A stretch of DNA of 64,000 bases from Oscillospiraceae bacterium (GTDB lineage Bacteria; Bacillota; Clostridia; Oscillospirales; Ruminococcaceae), in assembly GCA_022769565.1 (NCBI GenBank), contig JALEJQ010000008.1, positions 15,833-79,832 of the forward strand, read 5' to 3'. Below the pieces are notes generated by a model. That model worked only from the letters and a program-made list of their open reading frames with translations, did no database searches and was not told the DNA's origin. The translations under genes and the position numbers were made by a program. Shown here one piece after another: positions 1,920-60,486 of the stretch (position 1 is its first letter; each line of letters begins with the position of its first letter).

Positions 1920-2082
1920 GGGAACCTCTAAAAACCTCCTTCACGGCAAATCCTCTATGAGTTTTGCCATCTGCTTCGTTATCAAACCTTGTAATACATC
2001 AAGTATTACTGCGGTTTGATGCCTTGCAGCTGACAAAACTCATTACGAGGCTTTGCTCGTGTCCCGGTTTTTAGAGAACCCC
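1920..2082 (+). repeat. 163-nt rod-like hairpin repeat (GGGAACCTCTAAAAACC...GGTTTTTAGAGAACCCC), copy 1
   Basis: Near-identical second copy at 50378-50541. The arms are complementary, with compensatory differences between the copies. Flanked by ATAA on both sides. Confidence 0.85.
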
Positions 2083-2103
2083 ATAAGTAAAAAGGAGCTG
2101 CCA

Positions 2104-3629: not shown

Positions 3630-4502
3630 ATGACAGAGCAAATGACAGGTCTTGTCCTTGAGGGCGGAACGTTCAGAGGAATATTCTCCGCAGGCGTTAT
3701 GGACGCATTTATTGAAGCAGGAGTGGAGTTTCCCTACGTTGTAGGCGTTTCCGCAGGCATTTCCAACGGAGTTTCCTACATTTCAAAGCAGTTCGGCAGA
3801 AATATTGACATTCTTGAAAACTACCGCCTTGACAAGCGTTATATCGGCGCAGGAAACTTTCTCAAATGCAAAAGCTGCTTTGGTCTTGACTTTGTTTTCG
3901 GGGATATTCCCAATGAGCTTATCCCCTTTGACTACGATACATATCACAGGTACAAGGGCAGAGTAAGGGTAGGCGTTACCAACGCAGACACAGGCAGCGC
4001 AGAGTTTATGGACGGGCTTACGGACAGCGAAAACTGGCAGTTTCTCCGTGCCACCTGCGCCATTCCGGGACTTTTTCCGCCCATTGAGATAAACGACGGA
4101 CACTATTACGACGGCGGACTTGCCTGCCCGATTGCGGTAACTCAGGCGATAAAGGACGGCTGCACGAAAAACGTTATTATCCTTACCCAGCCTGAGGGCT
4201 TTGTAAAAAAATGCGGCAAGGGCAACGTTGTTATGAGCCAGCTTATAAAGCATAAATTCCCCAAGGTGGAGATAATGCTTCTTGCCCGTCACAGGATATA
4301 CAACAGGCAGGTGAAGTTCTGCGAGGAGCTTGAACGCAGGGGCAAGGCGCTGATAATCCGCCCCAAGGAACGTCTTGACAGCATGGAAAAGGACACTGCG
4401 AAGCTCCGTGCAACGTGGCAGAGCGGCTACGACGAAGCTATGGGCAGAATGGACGAGATAAAAGCCTTCATCGGGGAAGAATATCATATGTACGAAGTTT
4501 GA
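3630..4502 (+). CDS. patatin-like phospholipase
   Basis: Oxyanion motif GGTFRG and nucleophile elbow GVSAG near the N-terminus; a later DGG-type Asp (YYDGGL). Confidence 0.85.
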   Translation: MTEQMTGLVLEGGTFRGIFSAGVMDAFIEAGVEFPYVVGVSAGISNGVSYISKQFGRNIDILENYRLDKRYIGAGNFLKCKSCFGLDFVFGDIPNELIPFDYDTYHRYKGRVRVGVTNADTGSAEFMDGLTDSENWQFLRATCAIPGLFPPIEINDGHYYDGGLACPIAVTQAIKDGCTKNVIILTQPEGFVKKCGKGNVVMSQLIKHKFPKVEIMLLARHRIYNRQVKFCEELERRGKALIIRPKERLDSMEKDTAKLRATWQSGYDEAMGRMDEIKAFIGEEYHMYEV

Positions 4503-4692
4503 AGTGTTAAGAGTGGAGAGTGAAGTTTTTACTGAATTTGGAATGTGAAGAGTGGAAAGTGGAATTATGGGCGCTTTGCTAAATGAATAATGAATAATTT
4601 TGGTGTTCGCTTCGCTCACGAATTTTAAAATACATCGCCACAGGCGACACCTTAATTATTCATTCTTCACTATTCACTATTCATTATTCATT
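4501..4692. repeat. heptamer-array inverted-repeat element (X family), copy X1
   Basis: Purine-rich 7-nt tandem array at 4501-4567. Then an inverted repeat: AAATGAATAATGAATAATT, core GGTGTTCGCTTCGCTCACGAATTTTAAAATACATCGCCACAGGCGACACC, and a TTAATTATTCATT... arm. Confidence 0.8.
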
Positions 4693-4758
4693 TTTTATGA
4701 ATATTTCCTCCTCCGTAAGCGCAGAATAAATAAAAATAAGCGCAAACGGGAGGACGTT

Positions 4759-5793: not shown

Positions 5794-5819
5794 AAAGCCG
5801 TTTTTCTGCCCAAAACCTT

Positions 5820-5888
5820 GCGCTTCGCTAAATGAATAGTGAATAATTATGGTGTTCACTTCGCTCACTTAATTATTCACTTTTCATT
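5820..5888. repeat. X-family inverted repeat, short copy X2
   Basis: AAATGAATAGTGAATAATTA, truncated core GGTGTTCACTTCGCTCAC, then TTAATTATTCACTTTTCATT. Confidence 0.75.
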
Positions 5889-5898
5889 ACAATAGCTG

Positions 5899-5927
5899 TT
5901 GACAAACTGGAATGTGTGAGTTATAAT
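5899..5927 (+). promoter_or_regulatory. sigma-A-type promoter (TTGACA-17-TATAAT)
   Basis: Perfect -35 at 5899-5904 and perfect -10 at 5922-5927 with a 17-nt spacer. It points into repeat copy A and the lipase gene. Confidence 0.65.
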
Positions 5928-5956
5928 ATTATACAGCATATAGTATCATAACTTTA

Positions 5957-6115
5957 TACTAATCTTTGACCGTTCTATAGACAAAGACGGCAAATAGAAC
6001 ACAGCCAATCAAGATAAGCGGCCGCAGCAAGGCTTGGTGCCTTGCAAGGGAGCTTGACGCCGAGTGGCTGGGTTATAGCTGTCGGATTTGTCTATAGGTT
6101 GGTTAACGATTAGTA
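5957..6115 (+). repeat. TACTAAT-family structured element, copy A (candidate cis-acting RNA or MITE)
   Basis: 159 nt with termini TACTAAT/ATTAGTA. Collinear with copies at 21919-22076(-), 36067-36226(+) and 60266-60423(+). Nested stems show compensatory changes between copies. Confidence 0.85.
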
Positions 6116-6138
6116 TTATATCAAAGGCGGCGGAAAAT

Positions 6139-6954
6139 ATGACGGCAGATACAAAATATCCCATATTAATGGTTCACGGCATGGGCTTTCGTGACTATAA
6201 AAATCTGTGCTACTGGGGCAGGATACCGAAAATACTGGAGCAGAACGGCGCAAAGATCTATTTCGGCAGACAGGACAGCAACGGCTCGGTAGAGAGCAAC
6301 GCCCGTCAGCTTGAAGCAAGCCTTAAAGCCGTGCTTTCCGAAACGGGCGCAGAAAAGGTCAATATAATTGCTCATTCCAAGGGCGGACTTGAAGCACGTT
6401 ATCTTATTTCAACAATGGGTCACGGCGAAAAAATTGCGTCGCTGACGACCCTGTCCACTCCTCATAACGGTTCGCTGACTGTGGATAAGCTGCTTGCTCT
6501 GCCTGCGCCTGCCGTTAAGCTTTGCTGCAAGGCTGCAGATCTGTGGTTCAGACTTCTGGGCGACAGATCTCCCGATACATACAATGCGGTAAACACCTTC
6601 AAAACAAGCACGGCTGATAAATTCAACAGGGAAAACCCCGACGACCCCCGTGTTTATTACCAAAGCTACGGCTTTGTAATGAATAAAATGACCTCCGATA
6701 TGACAATGTGCATACCGTGGCTTGTGGTACATAGCATAGAGGGAGAAAACGACGGTCTGCTTGCGCCGAGGGCAGTTAAATGGACAAATTTCAAGGGCAT
6801 ATACAGCGGAAGCGGCAAACGGGGAATATCCCACTGCGACGAAGTGGATATGCGCCGCAAAAGGCTTTCCGTCCGCAGCGAAAATGCCGCTGTAAACGAC
6901 ATTACGGAGCTGTATCTTCATATTGCGGCGGAACTGAAAAATATGGGCTTCTGA
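6139..6954 (+). CDS. alpha/beta-hydrolase triacylglycerol lipase/esterase
   Basis: YPILMVHGMGF oxyanion region and nucleophile pentapeptide AHSKGG, as in small Bacillus-type lipases. The ATG at 6139 lies just 3' of the repeat. Confidence 0.8.
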   Translation: MTADTKYPILMVHGMGFRDYKNLCYWGRIPKILEQNGAKIYFGRQDSNGSVESNARQLEASLKAVLSETGAEKVNIIAHSKGGLEARYLISTMGHGEKIASLTTLSTPHNGSLTVDKLLALPAPAVKLCCKAADLWFRLLGDRSPDTYNAVNTFKTSTADKFNRENPDDPRVYYQSYGFVMNKMTSDMTMCIPWLVVHSIEGENDGLLAPRAVKWTNFKGIYSGSGKRGISHCDEVDMRRKRLSVRSENAAVNDITELYLHIAAELKNMGF

Positions 6955-7017
6955 ACGGGAAAACATAAATTACCGCTATTTTTTTGTATAAAAATACGGC
7001 TTGTCTGCATAAAATTT

Positions 7018-7044
7018 GGTAGCGCTTCGCTCACGGATTTTAAA
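7018..7044. repeat. X-family core fragment
   Basis: GGTAGCGCTTCGCTCACGGATTTTAAA matches the conserved core of X1, X4 and X5 but has no arms. Confidence 0.5.
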
Positions 7045-21918: not shown

Positions 21919-22076
21919 TACTAATAACCAATTAACCTATGGACAAATCCGACGTCTATAATACGCCCATTTTGCGTCAAGCTCCCTTGACAGGCGGCAG
22001 CCTGCCTGCGGTCGCTTTCCTTGACTGGACGTATTCTATCCGCCGTCTTTATCCATAGAACAATTGGTTATTAGTA
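21919..22076 (-). repeat. TACTAAT-family structured element, copy B
   Basis: 158 nt, the reverse complement is collinear with copies A, C and D. Perfect outer stem AACCAATT/AATTGGTT. Confidence 0.85.
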
Positions 22077-36066: not shown

Positions 36067-36226
36067 TATTAATAACCAATTGTTCTATGGATAAAGACGG
36101 CGGATAGAATACGTCCGGTCAAGGAAAGCAACCGCCGCAATGCTTGGTGCCTTGCAAGGGGAGCTTGACGCAGAATGGGCGTATTATAGACGTCGGATTT
36201 GTCTATAGGTTGATATGAACTTAGTA
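36067..36226 (+). repeat. TACTAAT-family structured element, copy C (degenerate termini)
   Basis: The core is near-identical to copy B. The left terminus is TATTAAT and the right outer stem is lost. It abuts the stop codon at 36227-36229. Confidence 0.8.
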
Positions 36227-37186
36227 TTATAGTCCGTCGCTGATTTCCGAGGTCTTGTCCGACTGCTTTATGGCAACGAGAGTATATTCATTTCCACGCT
36301 TTGAAACGACATAATCAACATACTTCTCGGGCAGGGGTGCTTCATCGGAGGTAAGGGTCAGCCATGCAGGCGTAGGCGAAACATAGCCTACGGTCAGAGT
36401 ATAGCTCTCCCCTACCCTTGTTATATCCTCGATATACGGCGAATAGGTGAAGTATCTGGGGTTTGAGGGTATTCTGTAGGACTTTATCTCTTCCTCATAG
36501 TAAAACTGTATATCGGGACCCAATATGGATTCATGGGAAAAGCTCAGACCCGAGCCGAACAGCTTTGTTGCGTGCTGTTCAACGTCAACCTCCGGGACAA
36601 TGATATAGTCGAAGTCGCTTTCGTACTTGCTCTTGTCCTCATAAAGAATAATATCCCATATAGCTGCCGTGAGCATGGTGTCGCTGCGCAGCTTTACCGT
36701 CTGGTCGAAGGGTGCCGGGTCGCATATGACAATGGGGTAAATGAACTTTGCAAACTCGGTCTTCTGCTGTGTATTGTCGGCAAACGCCTTTATCTTGTCA
36801 ACGGAAAATCTTACCGTTGAAACAAGTCCCACCGCCGCAAGCAGGGTTATCACTATTCCGAGAAGCATATATAACCGCCGTTTGCCGCCCTTTACATCGG
36901 TGGAAACAGGCATTTCTATCTCAGGCTCTCCTGCGGCAAATTCAGCCATTTCTTCCGCTTTTTCATCGAGAGCGTCATCAAACATACGCTTGATATTCTC
37001 AATGGATTCACGGCTTTCCTCCTTGAACCTTTCAGCCTTTTCGCTTTTTGCGGCAGGCTTCTGCTGAGGCTTGGGCTGTGGAGTTTTATTTGTGTTCTCA
37101 GGCTTTTTTTTCTTCTTGTTCTTCTTTCCGCCGGCTTTTATATAGCTGTCGTAATCGAAGAAATCCTTGTTATCGTTTTTATCCAT
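36227..37186 (-). CDS. hypothetical membrane-anchored protein with Lys/Pro-rich N-terminus
   Basis: 319 aa. The KKNKKKKKPENTNKTPQPKPQQKP tract is followed by one TM segment (LYMLLGIVITLLAAVGLV) and a globular domain. Confidence 0.6.
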   Translation of the reverse strand: MDKNDNKDFFDYDSYIKAGGKKNKKKKKPENTNKTPQPKPQQKPAAKSEKAERFKEESRESIENIKRMFDDALDEKAEEMAEFAAGEPEIEMPVSTDVKGGKRRLYMLLGIVITLLAAVGLVSTVRFSVDKIKAFADNTQQKTEFAKFIYPIVICDPAPFDQTVKLRSDTMLTAAIWDIILYEDKSKYESDFDYIIVPEVDVEQHATKLFGSGLSFSHESILGPDIQFYYEEEIKSYRIPSNPRYFTYSPYIEDITRVGESYTLTVGYVSPTPAWLTLTSDEAPLPEKYVDYVVSKRGNEYTLVAIKQSDKTSEISDGL

Positions 37187-38496: not shown

Positions 38497-38596
38497 TACT
38501 AATAACCAATTAAAAACTGTACAAAAAATCGAGCATAATCTTAGCTTTATGGATTATGCAAAGATTTTTTGTCTACAGCTTTATTGGTTATTAGTA
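38497..38596. repeat. TACTAAT-family short variant (E)
   Basis: The termini TACTAATAACCAAT/ATTGGTTATTAGTA match copy B, but the interior is a different 70-nt hairpin. Confidence 0.75.
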
Positions 38597-40797: not shown

Positions 40798-40852
40798 TAC
40801 TAATTCTAAACCCTAATTCTAAATCGTTCTATAGGTTGATTTGAATTTAGTA
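40798..40852. repeat. TACTAAT-family collapsed remnant (F)
   Basis: Consists of TACTAAT, then GTTCTATAGGTT (left and right arm motifs fused), then TTTAGTA. Confidence 0.6.
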
Positions 40853-44751: not shown

Positions 44752-44842
44752 AACTATACAAACTCCCTGTTTTTTCATCAAATTTCAAACACAAATTTCA
44801 TTATAGCATCTTACGCTCTTTCAGGCAATATACAAAATGACG

Positions 44843-45047
44843 AAAAAAGTTTGAAGTGTGAAGAGTGGAGAGTGAAGTTTTTTTCGGAATGTGAAATGTG
44901 GAAAGTTGAAAGTGGAATTAATGTGTCGGCTTCGCCGATGATTTTAAAATCCGCGAGCGCAGCGAACACCATAATTCTTCATTCCACTTTTCACTTTCCA
45001 CATTCAATAAAACTCCACTCTCCACTCTCCACTCTTCAAACTTTTTT
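44843..45047. repeat. X-family heptamer-array inverted repeat, copy X4
   Basis: About 75-nt arms built from degenerate 7-nt units (GAAGTGT GAAGAGT GGAGAGT ... GGAATGT GAAATGT GGAAAGT) and their complements, flanking the conserved core in reverse orientation. Confidence 0.85.
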
Positions 45048-45825: not shown

Positions 45826-46040
45826 AATGAATAGAGATTAGTGGATAGTGAATAATTAAGGTATCGCCTGCGGCAATGTATTTAAGGCAACACCGTACAA
45901 AGACCGCCTTTCGGATTTGTGCGGTATTTCCTTAAGATCCGTGAGCGCAGCGAACACCTTAATTATTCATTTTTCATTATTCATTATTCATTTAGCGCAG
46001 CACCTATGTTCATTTAGCCAAACGCCTCTAATCTCTAATT
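45826..46040. repeat. X-family inverted repeat with nested insertion, copy X5
   Basis: AATGAAT/AGTGAAT-type arms. The core is split at its ATTTTAAAAT centre by an extra hairpin (ACCGTACAAA...TTTGTGCGGT). Confidence 0.8.
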
Positions 46041-50377: not shown

Positions 50378-50541
50378 GGGAACCTCTAAAAACCTCCTTC
50401 ACGGCAAATTTTCTATGACTTTGTTCATCTGCTGCGTTATCAAACCTTGTAATACATCAAGTATTACTGCGGTTTGATGCCTTGCAGCTAAACAAAGTCA
50501 TGGACGAAAATTTGCTCGTGTCCCGGTTTTTAGAGAACCCC
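50378..50541 (+). repeat. rod-like hairpin repeat, copy 2
   Basis: Collinear with 1920-2082. Same termini and apex, with compensated arm differences. Flanked by ATAA on both sides. Confidence 0.85.
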
Positions 50542-50681
50542 ATAAAACAAACTGTCAGACACGACAGCGGTACATCCTCTGCCGTGTCTGCAGATTTTCA
50601 CAAAAAGCGACGTTTTTTTGTCTGCCGTTAATTTGCACAGAAAAACGCCGTTTTTTTTTATACCCTATTTCAAAAAGCCCC

Positions 50682-60137: not shown

Positions 60138-60265
60138 AACACTCAAAGCTGATACATATTTTTAACCAACCTATAGATAATACTAATAATAATAAAAAAC
60201 GGGAAAAAATCTGCGCCGAAATCCATTATACGCAAGATTATCGGCTTGATTTTTTTCATATTTTA

Positions 60266-60423
60266 TACTAATCCTCATTTGTTCGGTGGATAAAGTTGGT
60301 AGATAGAATTGCTCCAATCAAGGAAAGCGACCACAGGCGTGCTGTCGCACGGCAAGGAAGCTTGACGACGAGTGGTGCAATTATAGCTGCCAAATTTATC
60401 TACAGGTTAAATGAGGATTAGTA
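60266..60423 (+). repeat. TACTAAT-family structured element, copy D
   Basis: 158 nt. The most divergent copy, yet every stem is maintained by compensatory substitutions (for example CCTCATTT/AAATGAGG). Confidence 0.85.
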
Positions 60424-60454
60424 TTAAATGGTGTTTAGTATAAAACCTCACCAA

Positions 60455-60486
60455 GGATTTGTCTATAGGTTGGTTTAGAATTAGTA
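60455..60486 (+). repeat. TACTAAT-family solo right-end fragment
   Basis: GGATTTGTCTATAGGTTGGTTTAGAATTAGTA matches the right arm only. An inverted right-end remnant is also present at 60164-60187. Confidence 0.6.

Follow-up and report, generated by a model that had tools for sequence, protein, structure and literature searches.

The gene for a lipase/alpha-beta hydrolase (positions 6139–6954, plus strand; Pfam Palm_thioest, Lipase_2, and Abhydrolase_1) in the 64,000-nucleotide stretch of DNA analyzed here (the window) is preceded by a 159-base element that we call copy A (5957–6115, plus strand). The question raised by this locus is whether the element is an RNA that serves the lipase gene or a piece of mobile DNA that landed in front of it. 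The first-pass annotation had proposed a structured RNA family with four full copies, one of which forms the lipase 5′ UTR. The layout of the locus was described correctly: a promoter scan confirmed the perfect TTGACA-17-TATAAT promoter at 5899–5927 (plus strand; 12 of 12 consensus positions match), and the lipase ATG at 6139 lies 23 nt past the end of copy A. Because copy A sits between this promoter and the start codon, it would be transcribed within the lipase 5′ UTR.

All four full copies are present at the reported positions, namely copy A, copy B (21919–22076, minus strand), copy C (36067–36226, plus strand), and copy D (60266–60423, plus strand), with a mean column identity of 82% in the alignment. 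We use the name F1 for the ~158-nt MITE family that includes them, whose members are 157 to 166 nt long. Covariance-model scores for the four window copies are 125 to 169 bits on the sense strand (157 bits for copy A) versus 29 to 75 bits on the antisense strand, and copy A folds as the single long rod that had been described (−77.8 kcal/mol, z = −10.1). No conserved ORF was seen in the F1 alignment, and intact copies consist of the rod only. Rfam 15 yielded no matches, whether the window was searched at gathering thresholds or the region around copy A at E ≤ 10, in agreement with the statement that the element could be placed in no known RNA family; a literature search for the F1 sequence blocks likewise found them in no paper.

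Covariation was assessed in 46 distinct copies from gut Oscillospiraceae/Huintestinicola, with at least 20 genomes represented. Across this set, the stems vary between copies yet remain complementary, as had been noted from four copies, with 96.6% of cells paired and double changes in 33 of 54 pairs. The covariation score of this set is 0.428 versus 0.150 in shuffles, none of 500 of which reached 0.428, and versus at most 0.089 when the partners were slid. Within the rod, 11 of the 14 inner-stem pairs covary, as do helix a and the apical hairpin, and single pairs reach four Watson–Crick types (for example, columns 51/126).

The two strands are predicted to differ in stability: in each of the 46 copies, the sense strand is the more stable one (mean −78.3 kcal/mol, versus −64.6 kcal/mol for the antisense strand). 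A preference for G-T over A-C had been read as the sign of an RNA-level fold. The excess itself stands (43 versus 14 cluster-level events), but it does not extend over the whole element: it is found in the terminal-repeat region (26 versus 3), whereas the inner stem (14 versus 7, p = 0.19) and the core (3 versus 4) show none. Note that the left and right ends of these terminal repeats differ in F1 as they do in the parent insertion sequence (IS) described below.

Inside the rod is a near-invariant asymmetric core, defined by invariant alignment columns and located at 6009–6059 (plus strand) in copy A, in which (T)CAAG-helix-GNCCGCAG is followed by an apical GC hairpin and then by CAAGG-helix′-GACG. 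The conservation of this core is exceeded solely by that of the extreme tips of F1, and it is maintained where the adjoining stems have completely turned over. The core has no similarity to the interior of the 1128-bp parent IS. Two other blocks that had been listed as conserved and unpaired, GTTCTATrGAyAAAG and GATTTGTCTATAGGTT, are in fact paired with each other and form the inner segment of the terminal inverted repeat. A K-turn formed by the tandem G-A motifs was considered and set aside, as the strand topology is unfit and a related family (family G, below) has Watson–Crick pairs at these positions.

The F1 tips, TACTAAT...ATTAGTA, are near-invariant, and each end also has an inner CTATAGACAAA motif, the two lying in inverted orientation. 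In copy A, the left terminal inverted repeat (5957–5986, plus strand) is composed of the tip TACTAAT, a variable 8-nt spacer, and the inner motif CTATAGACAAAG; it matches the left end of the parent IS (TACTAATCTTCAGTCTGACTATAGACAAAG) and is presumed to be a transposase-binding site. The right terminal inverted repeat (ATTTGTCTATAGG...ATTAGTA; 6086–6115, plus strand) matches the right end of the same IS (TTTTGTCTATATTGTGATTGGAAATTAGTA). F1 is further flanked by a 3-bp TNA direct repeat that is absent from the first-pass annotation. For copy A, this target-site duplication is formed by TTA at 5954–5956 and TTA at 6116–6118, as judged by flank comparison and by an empty ortholog in which a single TTA is present. 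Matched flanks were observed at 42 of 50 genome loci (37 TTA/TTA, 4 TAA/TAA, and 1 TCA/TCA), and all 48 copies compared at these positions have T at −3 and A at −1. Metagenome loci gave matched TNA flanks for 14 of 16 F1 copies and for 31 of 34 copies of a related family, F2, with TCA and TGA pairs among them; TCA/TCA and TGA/TGA flanks fit no TA-duplication model. A tandem pair in L106 has one TTA in common, and the right TTA of copy C (36227–36229), a copy in which both tips are mutated, coincides with the TAA stop codon of a minus-strand gene (36227–37186).

Other modes of movement and target choice were rejected. Insertion 3′ of TTA in the manner of IS200/IS605 elements is contradicted by the right TNA, which tracks the left TNA within subfamilies, and by the existence of TCA and TGA pairs. 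A REP/REPIN element (RAYT-mobilised) or an IS200/IS605-derived palindrome would make no target-site duplication and would have single-strand hairpin ends for an HUH tyrosine transposase, which does not agree with the true duplication seen here or with a parent enzyme of the DDE type. Finally, the variable 8-nt stem does not appear to guide target choice like a guide RNA or bridge RNA, since its longest matches to its own flanks average 4.65 nt versus 4.66 nt after permutation.

The insertion can be followed directly at the lipase locus. A close relative whose lipase protein is 93% identical (L242–L245, four independent contigs from four samples) has the same spoVAD-lipase arrangement, and its lipase leader of ~45 nt carries the same perfect promoter and ribosome-binding region, no element, and a single TTA. 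By this comparison, the lipase promoter is older than the insertion, and copy A landed downstream of it in the ~45-nt leader. A hairpin of −78 kcal/mol would thereby become part of the lipase mRNA, but only as a side effect of the insertion. The insertion represents a strain-level polymorphism and may alter mRNA processing. Other routes to empty sites gave less: exact-protein look-ups of the genes beside copies A, B, and C led to contigs that stop at the element edge, and BLAST searches with the flanks among the loci retrieved diverged neighborhoods only.

The orientation of F1 relative to its neighbors is random. Among 40 copies with two scorable neighbors, 9 are co-directional, 12 antisense, 12 between convergent genes, and 7 between divergent genes, and of the 45 copies for which the downstream gene was scorable, only 17 could serve as 5′ leaders. 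All scored F1 copies are intergenic, and eight abut a stop codon. Within the window, copy B is flanked by two minus-strand genes and is co-directional with both, copy C is antisense to both of its flanking genes, and copy D has convergent genes on either side. No promoter inside the element was evident from a scan of the copy A region, nor was a conserved sigma-70-type promoter apparent by eye in the family; the conserved pair TTGACG...TATAGC was discounted, again by eye, because its 14-nt spacer is too short. With the element absent from the orthologous leader and its orientation random across copies, copy A cannot be regarded as a dedicated lipase leader or RNA gene.

A second empty site is provided by copy D, which is nested in a MITE of a ~108-nt family with the tip TACTAA (F3). 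Copy D interrupts this host between its left part (60181–60265, plus strand) and its right part (60427–60443, plus strand). Intact F3 hosts in L038 and L071 read CATATTTTAAATGGTGTTTAGTA, whereas the window reads CATATTTTA[D]TTAAATGG..., and the host MITE thereby gives a paralogous empty site. A fragment listed earlier at 60164–60187 overlaps the left tip of this F3 MITE. Indeed, the pieces that had been listed as derivatives do not form a single class: besides this overlap with F3, they comprise an F2 copy (38497–38596, plus strand), a 55-nt internal-deletion derivative of F1 with TTA/TTA flanks (40798–40852, plus strand), and a right-end fragment of F1 that stands isolated (60455–60486, plus strand; recognized by comparison with F1). 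F2 is a MITE family of ~100 nt that has its TACTAAT tips and its inner motif in common with F1 but has no F1 core; it is abundant in human-gut metagenome contigs.

We also found an autonomous element with the same termini, for which a search had been suggested. This 1128-bp IS (L369–L372) has the tip, spacing, and inner motif of F1, arranged as bipartite ends of the form TACTAAT-N11/12-TATAGACAAA; its ends read TACTAATCTTCAGTCTGACTATAGACAAAG and TACTAATTTCCAATCACAATATAGACAAAA, and it has TAA/TAA flanks at two independent loci. Its two ORFs are joined across an A7 slippery site, and the OrfAB fusion matches NF033545 (IS630 family transposase) with a score of 212 bits (cutoff, 100) over profile positions 1–295 of 299, as well as Pfam DDE_3 and HTH_23/29/33. 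Related left ends occur in L349, L341, L373, and L374. A search by repeated proteins and paired termini located no parent IS in the window or in the 46 F1-bearing genome loci, and the candidates that it returned, a TetR gene and an ammonium transporter, were dismissed. The first-pass annotation had named a MITE with an autonomous parent as the outcome that would overturn its RNA family. The 1128-bp IS is such a parent, and by the annotation's own measure the RNA-family claim therefore fails.

It is thus very probable that F1 is a MITE, a 157–160-bp noncoding derivative that retains only the two ends of an IS630-family IS. The target-site duplications, the nesting, and the parent IS show that F1 spreads as DNA. 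As bacterial repeats go, F1 is of an ordinary kind, albeit unusually well structured. In the mechanism that we propose, which draws on what is established biochemically for the IS630 family, the parent transposase would be produced as an OrfA-OrfB fusion via slippage on the A7 run and would combine N-terminal helix-turn-helix (HTH) domains with a DDE_3 catalytic domain. This enzyme would bind the bipartite terminal repeats at the tip TACTAAT and the inner CTATAGACAAA motif, the element would be excised and inserted at T-N-A sites, which are for the most part TTA in a T-rich setting, and a 3-nt stagger would give rise to the TNA duplication.

Such a mechanism has precedents. IS630 transposases, including that of ISY100, use two HTH motifs to bind the ends and move the element by a cut-and-paste route (PMC2170065). 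The parent IS resembles members of the IS630/Tc1/mariner group such as ISY100 and IS630 in its short inverted repeats, its HTH-HTH-DDE transposase, and its length of ~1.1 kb, but its transposase is encoded in two ORFs across A7. Because the group normally duplicates TA (PMC2170065, PMC10045372) and a 3-bp TNA is duplicated here, the lineage of F1 and its parent departs from the group norm; in the wider group, 3-bp duplications have been reported for fungal Fot (TAA) and Zator/ISAzo13 elements (PMC7386202, PMC10045372). In Streptococcus pneumoniae, IS630-Spn1 has a MITE called RUP, and long stem-loops are the fold of bacterial MITEs (PMC2229807). When compared by features rather than by sequence similarity, RUP is likewise small (107 bp versus 158 bp for F1), noncoding, intergenic, and present in many copies per genome; its ends also match an IS630-family IS that is proposed to move it in trans, it forms an end-to-end stem-loop, and it inserts into other mobile elements (PMC2229807). 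RUP duplicates TA whereas the F1 family duplicates TNA, and F1 differs further in its near-invariant asymmetric core and heavy compensatory variation, no such motif having been reported for RUP (PMC2229807). The ERIC/IRU, Correia/NEMIS, and YPAL elements of Proteobacteria resemble F1 as 100–170-bp imperfect palindromes whose 5′ end pairs with the 3′ end; they are co-transcribed with their neighbors, and some have internal motifs such as the Correia IHF site (PMC2229807). F1 comes from another phylum, is unrelated to them in sequence, and has a parent IS, which for most of those elements is not known. The plant Stowaway MITEs, which are short, hairpin-forming, non-autonomous elements derived from Tc1/mariner, belong to the same transposase superfamily as F1, although they are eukaryotic and duplicate TA. 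F1 and the 1128-bp IS thus form a clean pair of MITE and parent from gut Clostridia that are uncultured, and they exemplify a lineage of the IS630 family in which TNA, not TA, is duplicated.

Cut-and-paste movement needs no hairpin (PMC2170065), and the transposase therefore leaves the covariation of the inner stem and apical hairpin, and the shared core, unexplained. We infer that selection acting on the element lineage accounts for the rod shape and the conserved central core. Our leading guess is that intrastrand pairing or a cruciform, together with a central bend or protein site, joins the ends of this short DNA for synapsis; being compact, the fold may in addition keep insertions into transcribed spacers from doing harm. 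The core has a pseudo-symmetric aspect, in that a covarying helix is surrounded by internal loops of the form CAAGG / GAC(C)GCAG and capped by a GC hairpin that also covaries. Only tentatively, and with the odds against it, do we suggest that the rod and this near-invariant core constitute a functional structured nucleic-acid module rather than filler. Such a module could be a single-stranded DNA or cruciform that the IS630-type machinery or a host protein needs to synapse short ends, or it could be a protein-binding RNA seeded by MITEs across gut Oscillospiraceae genomes.

We consider it unlikely that F1 is a MITE of which the host has put the rod and core of some copies to its own use. They might then serve, for instance, as an RNase III site, as a protein-binding RNA, or, between convergent genes, as a terminator or a stabiliser of mRNA 3′ ends. 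The 12 of 40 scorable copies located between convergent genes and the 8 that abut a stop codon are compatible with such uses, as is a core whose conservation is second only to that of the extreme tips, and for ERIC elements an influence on how stable the flanking transcripts are has been reported (PMC2229807). However, we found no orthologous insertion kept across species, copies at separate loci of one genome are young (97–99% identical), and orientation is random.

Somewhat more doubtful still is the view that the complementarity is unselected, with the arms kept alike by events at the DNA level (for example fold-back repair, template switching, or the correction of mismatches within a DNA hairpin) and the core being sequence shared from a young ancestor. 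Palindromic MITEs are common (PMC2229807), and the lack of strand asymmetry in the inner stem and core agrees with this view. Nevertheless, conversion should erase bulges, end differences, and the non-palindromic core, all of which persist across subfamilies and in family G. The occurrence of up to four Watson–Crick types at single pairs such as columns 51/126, and a core conserved beside fully turned-over stems, also speak against it.

The possibility that F1 is primarily a structured cis-regulatory or stand-alone RNA whose spread is secondary, with copy A as a functional lipase leader, is very improbable despite several observations that would favor it: the very strong covariation, the more stable sense strand in 46 of 46 copies, the 43 versus 14 events of G-U over A-C, the conserved asymmetric core with a helix a that covaries across families, and the location of copy A between a perfect promoter and a start codon. 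Against these, the orthologous lipase leader keeps its promoter and RBS without the element, no more than 17 of 45 copies are oriented toward a gene downstream, and one-directional contexts comprise 9 sense and 12 antisense cases. The scan of the copy A region and inspection of the family by eye revealed no internal promoter, there is no Rfam family, and the G-U excess is confined to terminal repeats whose left and right ends differ as in the parent IS. The target-site duplication, nesting, and parent IS all signify spread as DNA. Our initial hypothesis of a MITE of the IS5/PIF-Harbinger kind can be dismissed, as the 3-bp TWA duplication that suggested it (target TTA/TAA; 3-bp duplications are canonical for Harbinger elements; PMC12730594, PMC2213677) is its one point of agreement, whereas the IS with the same termini encodes an IS630-family DDE_3 rather than a DDE_Tnp_1/4 enzyme and the sole IS5-type gene seen (L349) is an unrelated insertion that disrupts a parent copy.

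As a MITE family, F1 is dispersed in many copies, with at least seven in one genome among the matches listed. It had no match in a plasmid collection; a phage collection gave only faecal contigs that lack annotation and in which the copies are ordinary or deleted, and a scan of viral contigs with the core pattern gave chance matches only. Natural compensatory variants among the copies offer material on whether hairpins matter for the movement of very short cut-and-paste elements. A further family, G, has an F1-like rod and core but termini of the form GGGGTTCTCTAAAAACC...GGTTTTTAGAGGTTCCC (established from the alignment and boundaries at four loci), and helix a covaries across families F1 and G. 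The window holds two copies, G1 (1920–2083, minus strand; covariance-model score of 61.5 bits, TTA(T) flanks) and G2 (50378–50542, minus strand; 54.8 bits and alignment), which are missing from the first-pass annotation. In total, 4 F1 copies and ~7 related copies or fragments are present in 64 kb, and F1, F2, F3, and G together occupy about one site per 6–8 kb of the window. Short-read contigs end at the element edges, where these families break assemblies, and in Huintestinicola/Oscillospiraceae genomes they should be masked or labeled as MITEs rather than as candidate riboswitches or sRNAs.

The four full copies of the ~158-nt element family (F1) reported in the first-pass annotation, at 5957–6115(+), 21919–22076(−), 36067–36226(+), and 60266–60423(+) (copies A to D), were confirmed, with a mean column identity of 82%, and a covariance model scored them at 125 to 169 bits on these strands versus 29 to 75 bits on the other. 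Their flanking genes are ordinary chromosomal ones encoding SpoVAD, an alpha/beta-hydrolase lipase, a GTPase, a solute-binding protein, and a hybrid histidine kinase. Across the whole window no Rfam 15 family matched at curated thresholds, and around copy A none did even at E ≤ 10; a search of a literature collection found the sequence blocks of the element in none of its papers. When a genome collection was scanned with the pattern TCAAGGAAAGC-N15–45-GCTTGACG, at least 110 loci were recovered, of which a profile search retained at least ~50 as true F1 copies, the other hits being chance matches. Note that copy numbers from our genome, viral, and metagenome scans are lower bounds. The true copies are spread over at least 20 species-level genomes, which are assigned to Huintestinicola, Oscillospiraceae, or 'Ruminococcus sp.' and derive from the guts of humans, primates, ruminants, and deer. 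The plasmid collection gave no F1 match, and the matches listed for the phage collection were only unannotated faecal contigs. One 1033-nt contig labelled Candidatus Gastranaerophilales, a cyanobacteria-related bin (L028, CAAGHI010000055.1), carries a copy nearly identical to those of Huintestinicola butyrica, most likely through a binning error.

F1 is mobile DNA. At the lipase locus, the perfect TTGACA-17-TATAAT promoter (5899–5927) and the ATG at 6139 were both verified, and copy A had on this basis been proposed to form the 5′ UTR of the gene. However, contigs of four samples encode a lipase 93% identical to that of the window, with the same spoVAD–lipase arrangement and the same promoter, and lack the element. 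The empty leader reads ...TATTATAGCTTTACATAAAAGGCGGCGGAAAATATG, whereas the filled leader of the window reads ...TATCATAACTTTA[TACTAAT...ATTAGTA]TTATATCAAAGGCGGCGGAAAATATG. Therefore, copy A was inserted into a pre-existing leader of ~45 nt with duplication of TTA, and it represents a strain-level insertion polymorphism rather than a conserved regulatory leader. Copy D lies within a member of a third family (F3, 108 nt); at the point of insertion, intact F3 copies from other places read CATATTTTAAATGG. One locus (L106) holds two F1 copies in tandem with a single TTA common to both. Copies at separate loci of one genome are often 97 to 99% identical, and copy D shows 96% identity to copies from other species. 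Short-read contigs carrying the flanking genes break off at the edges of the element, the pattern that a repeat would produce. Orientation relative to neighbouring genes is random: among 40 copies with two neighbours scorable by a longest-ORF heuristic, nine are co-directional with both, 12 are antisense to both, 12 lie between convergent genes, seven lie between divergent genes, and none is inside a gene.

Every F1 copy is bordered on both sides by a 3-bp direct repeat of the form T-N-A. Matched flanks among 50 genome loci were TTA/TTA (37), TAA/TAA (four), and TCA/TCA (one), and the T at −3 and the A at −1 were invariant in 48 of 48 copies. The right triplet tracks the left triplet and not the F1 subfamily, and therefore TNA is a target duplication outside the element. 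Flanks were also matched at 14 of 16 metagenome F1 loci and at 31 of 34 loci of a related 100-nt family (F2). Duplication of a TA dinucleotide was ruled out by matched TCA and TGA flanks in the metagenome loci. On the F1 sense strand, TTA outnumbers TAA at the insertion by 47 to 7 (48 genome and 16 metagenome loci), and the left (5′) flank is T-rich in the 48 genome loci, which together indicate asymmetric target choice with a preferred orientation. A guide hypothesis, wherein the variable 8-nt stem specifies the target, was tried and rejected. Eight F1 copies adjoin a convergent gene at its stop codon; in copy C, for example, the right TTA (36227–36229) doubles as the TAA stop of the 36227–37186(−) gene. 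Insertion exactly at such a stop codon, which the duplication preserves, was seen for copy C and at L016, L031, L044, L049, L052, L073, and L087.

A single metagenome scan with the pattern TACTAAT-N12–14-TRTAGACAAA listed mostly F1 and F2 copies. At locus L349, by contrast, an F1-like left end precedes a ribosome-binding site and then a helix-turn-helix ORF, the peptide of which weakly matches the IS630 family model at its N-terminus. This ORF, the OrfA of a copy of the IS630-type parent, is interrupted (reverse strand, about 490 to 1520 from the IS left end) by an unrelated gene for an IS5-type transposase, with motifs including YKAHIGVD...GDSGY. Homologues of the peptide are 165-aa proteins on contigs of ~0.5 to 2 kb, as expected for a multicopy IS, and four such contigs (L369–L372; 76–1203 in L370) hold an 1128-bp element encoding OrfA (165 aa, HTH_23/29/33) and OrfB (166 aa, DDE_3). 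The overlap of the two ORFs spans an A7 run (GCCTCAAAAAAATTAAAA, around position 545–560), which suggests programmed frameshifting to yield the full transposase. The conceptual fusion of OrfA and OrfB (OrfAB) reaches 212 bits with the NF033545 model 'IS630 family transposase' (cutoff 100) and carries DDE_3 and HTH domains in Pfam. One end of the IS reads TACTAATCTTCAGTCTGACTATAGACAAAG and the other, on the opposite strand, TACTAATTTCCAATCACAATATAGACAAAA; it has TAA/TAA flanks at each of two independent loci. The same end architecture is seen in related ISs at L341, L373, and L374; an extended −10-like TGATATACT followed by AAGGGTGA-N5-ATG lies upstream of OrfA and is kept in L373 and L374. Because the left arm of F1 (...CTATAGACAAAG-NCG) is similar to the IS left end and the right arm (...TATAGACAAA-TCC) to the IS right end, the F1 'sense' strand is the one that encodes the transposase in the parent. 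The interiors of F1 and the 1128-bp IS share no similarity. The first-pass annotation had favoured an RNA-level fold, a claim it would surrender to a MITE with an autonomous parent; judged by its F1-like ends, the 1128-bp IS is such a parent, and the claim fails on those terms.

The transposase of ISY100 binds the ends through two HTH motifs and acts by cut-and-paste (PMC2170065). By analogy, the parent transposase would bind the bipartite F1 ends through two HTH motifs, excise F1, and paste it into a new site, steps that we infer from IS630 family membership. F1 would contribute ends only, with the enzyme supplied in trans, much as RUP has been proposed to rely in trans on the IS630-Spn1 enzyme (PMC2229807). 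RUP/IS630-Spn1 is the closest known case to F1 and its parent, and the rod-folding bacterial MITEs ERIC, Correia, and YPAL bear a broader likeness (PMC2229807). Whereas TA is the norm for the IS630 family, the F1 lineage duplicates TNA. Since 3-bp duplications are recorded in the IS630-Tc1-mariner group for fungal Fot (TAA) and Zator/ISAzo13 (PMC7386202, PMC10045372), this is a variant and not a new principle.

RNAalifold applied to 46 distinct full-length F1 copies yields one rod of 54 pairs, and copy A alone folds as a single rod (−77.8 kcal/mol, z = −10.1; complement, −61.4). The proposal that the stems vary yet remain complementary is strongly borne out because the alignment exceeds its controls: standard pairs fill 96.6% of cells (81.8% with shuffled partners, 30 to 42% with partners slid by 1 to 3 columns), 33 of the 54 pairs are changed on both sides (shuffled mean 23.5), and the covariation score is 0.428 (0.150 in shuffles, with none of 500 reaching the observed value, and at most 0.089 for slid partners). 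The supposedly unpaired blocks GTTCTATrGAyAAAG and GATTTGTCTATAGGTT are in fact paired to each other.

The rod extends beyond the presumed transposase-binding ends, which cover ~30 nt per arm. Covariation is strong both in the inner stem, where 11 of 14 pairs have double changes and one pair has up to four Watson–Crick types, and in the apical hairpin (four of five pairs). The 50-nt core is almost invariant and non-palindromic (CAAGG-helix-GACCGCAG-hairpin-CAAGG-helix′-GACG), with two similar internal loops related by pseudo-twofold symmetry. Cut-and-paste by the IS630-type family involves no hairpin intermediate (PMC2170065), and thus the known chemistry of the enzyme does not require the rod. 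Our leading guess is that intrastrand pairing or a cruciform, with a putative central bend or protein site, aids synapsis of the ends of an element whose length is about one persistence length. We also considered selection at the RNA level or co-option by the host. The sense strand is more stable than the antisense in 46 of 46 copies, and the excess of G-U over A-C from which an RNA-level fold had been argued does exist (43 versus 14 cluster-level events). However, it is restricted to the first 27 pairs (26 versus 3), being not significant in the inner stem (14 versus 7, p = 0.19) and absent from the core (3 versus 4). A third reading, in which a neutral DNA process homogenises the arms, is hard to reconcile with the asymmetries that are conserved.

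The covariance model also located two copies, at 1920–2083(−) and 50378–50542(−), that the first-pass annotation had missed. They belong to a MITE-like family (G) with the same rod as F1 and a homologous core, also found in L269 (5990–6164) and L052 (5506–5592), whose termini differ from those of F1 (GGGGTTCTCTAAAAACC...GGTTTTTAGAGGTTCCC, flanks TTA(T)). Its central helix is changed in sequence with pairing kept (AAAGC/GCTT, CATCAAA/TTTGAT, CAGCGAAA/TTTCGCT) and covaries with the central helix of F1. F2 (38497–38596 in the window) is a ~100-nt MITE that shares the TACTAAT tips and inner motif of F1 and lacks its core. At least about 34 copies occur among loci L250–L368, with matched TAA, TTA, TCA, or TGA flanks; in contigs of human-gut metagenomes, F2 is very abundant and shows almost no variation. 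A separate dispersed repeat, unrelated to the MITEs and partly palindromic (with blocks such as TGAATAATGAATAAT...GGTGTTCGCTTCGCTCAC and GAAGTGTGAAGAGTGGAGAGTGAAG), lies at 4487–4700, 5798–5873, 7006–7044, 44839–45047, and 45826–46007. The piece at 5798–5873, which closely precedes the lipase promoter, is missing from the orthologous locus L242, and so it also looks like an insertion.
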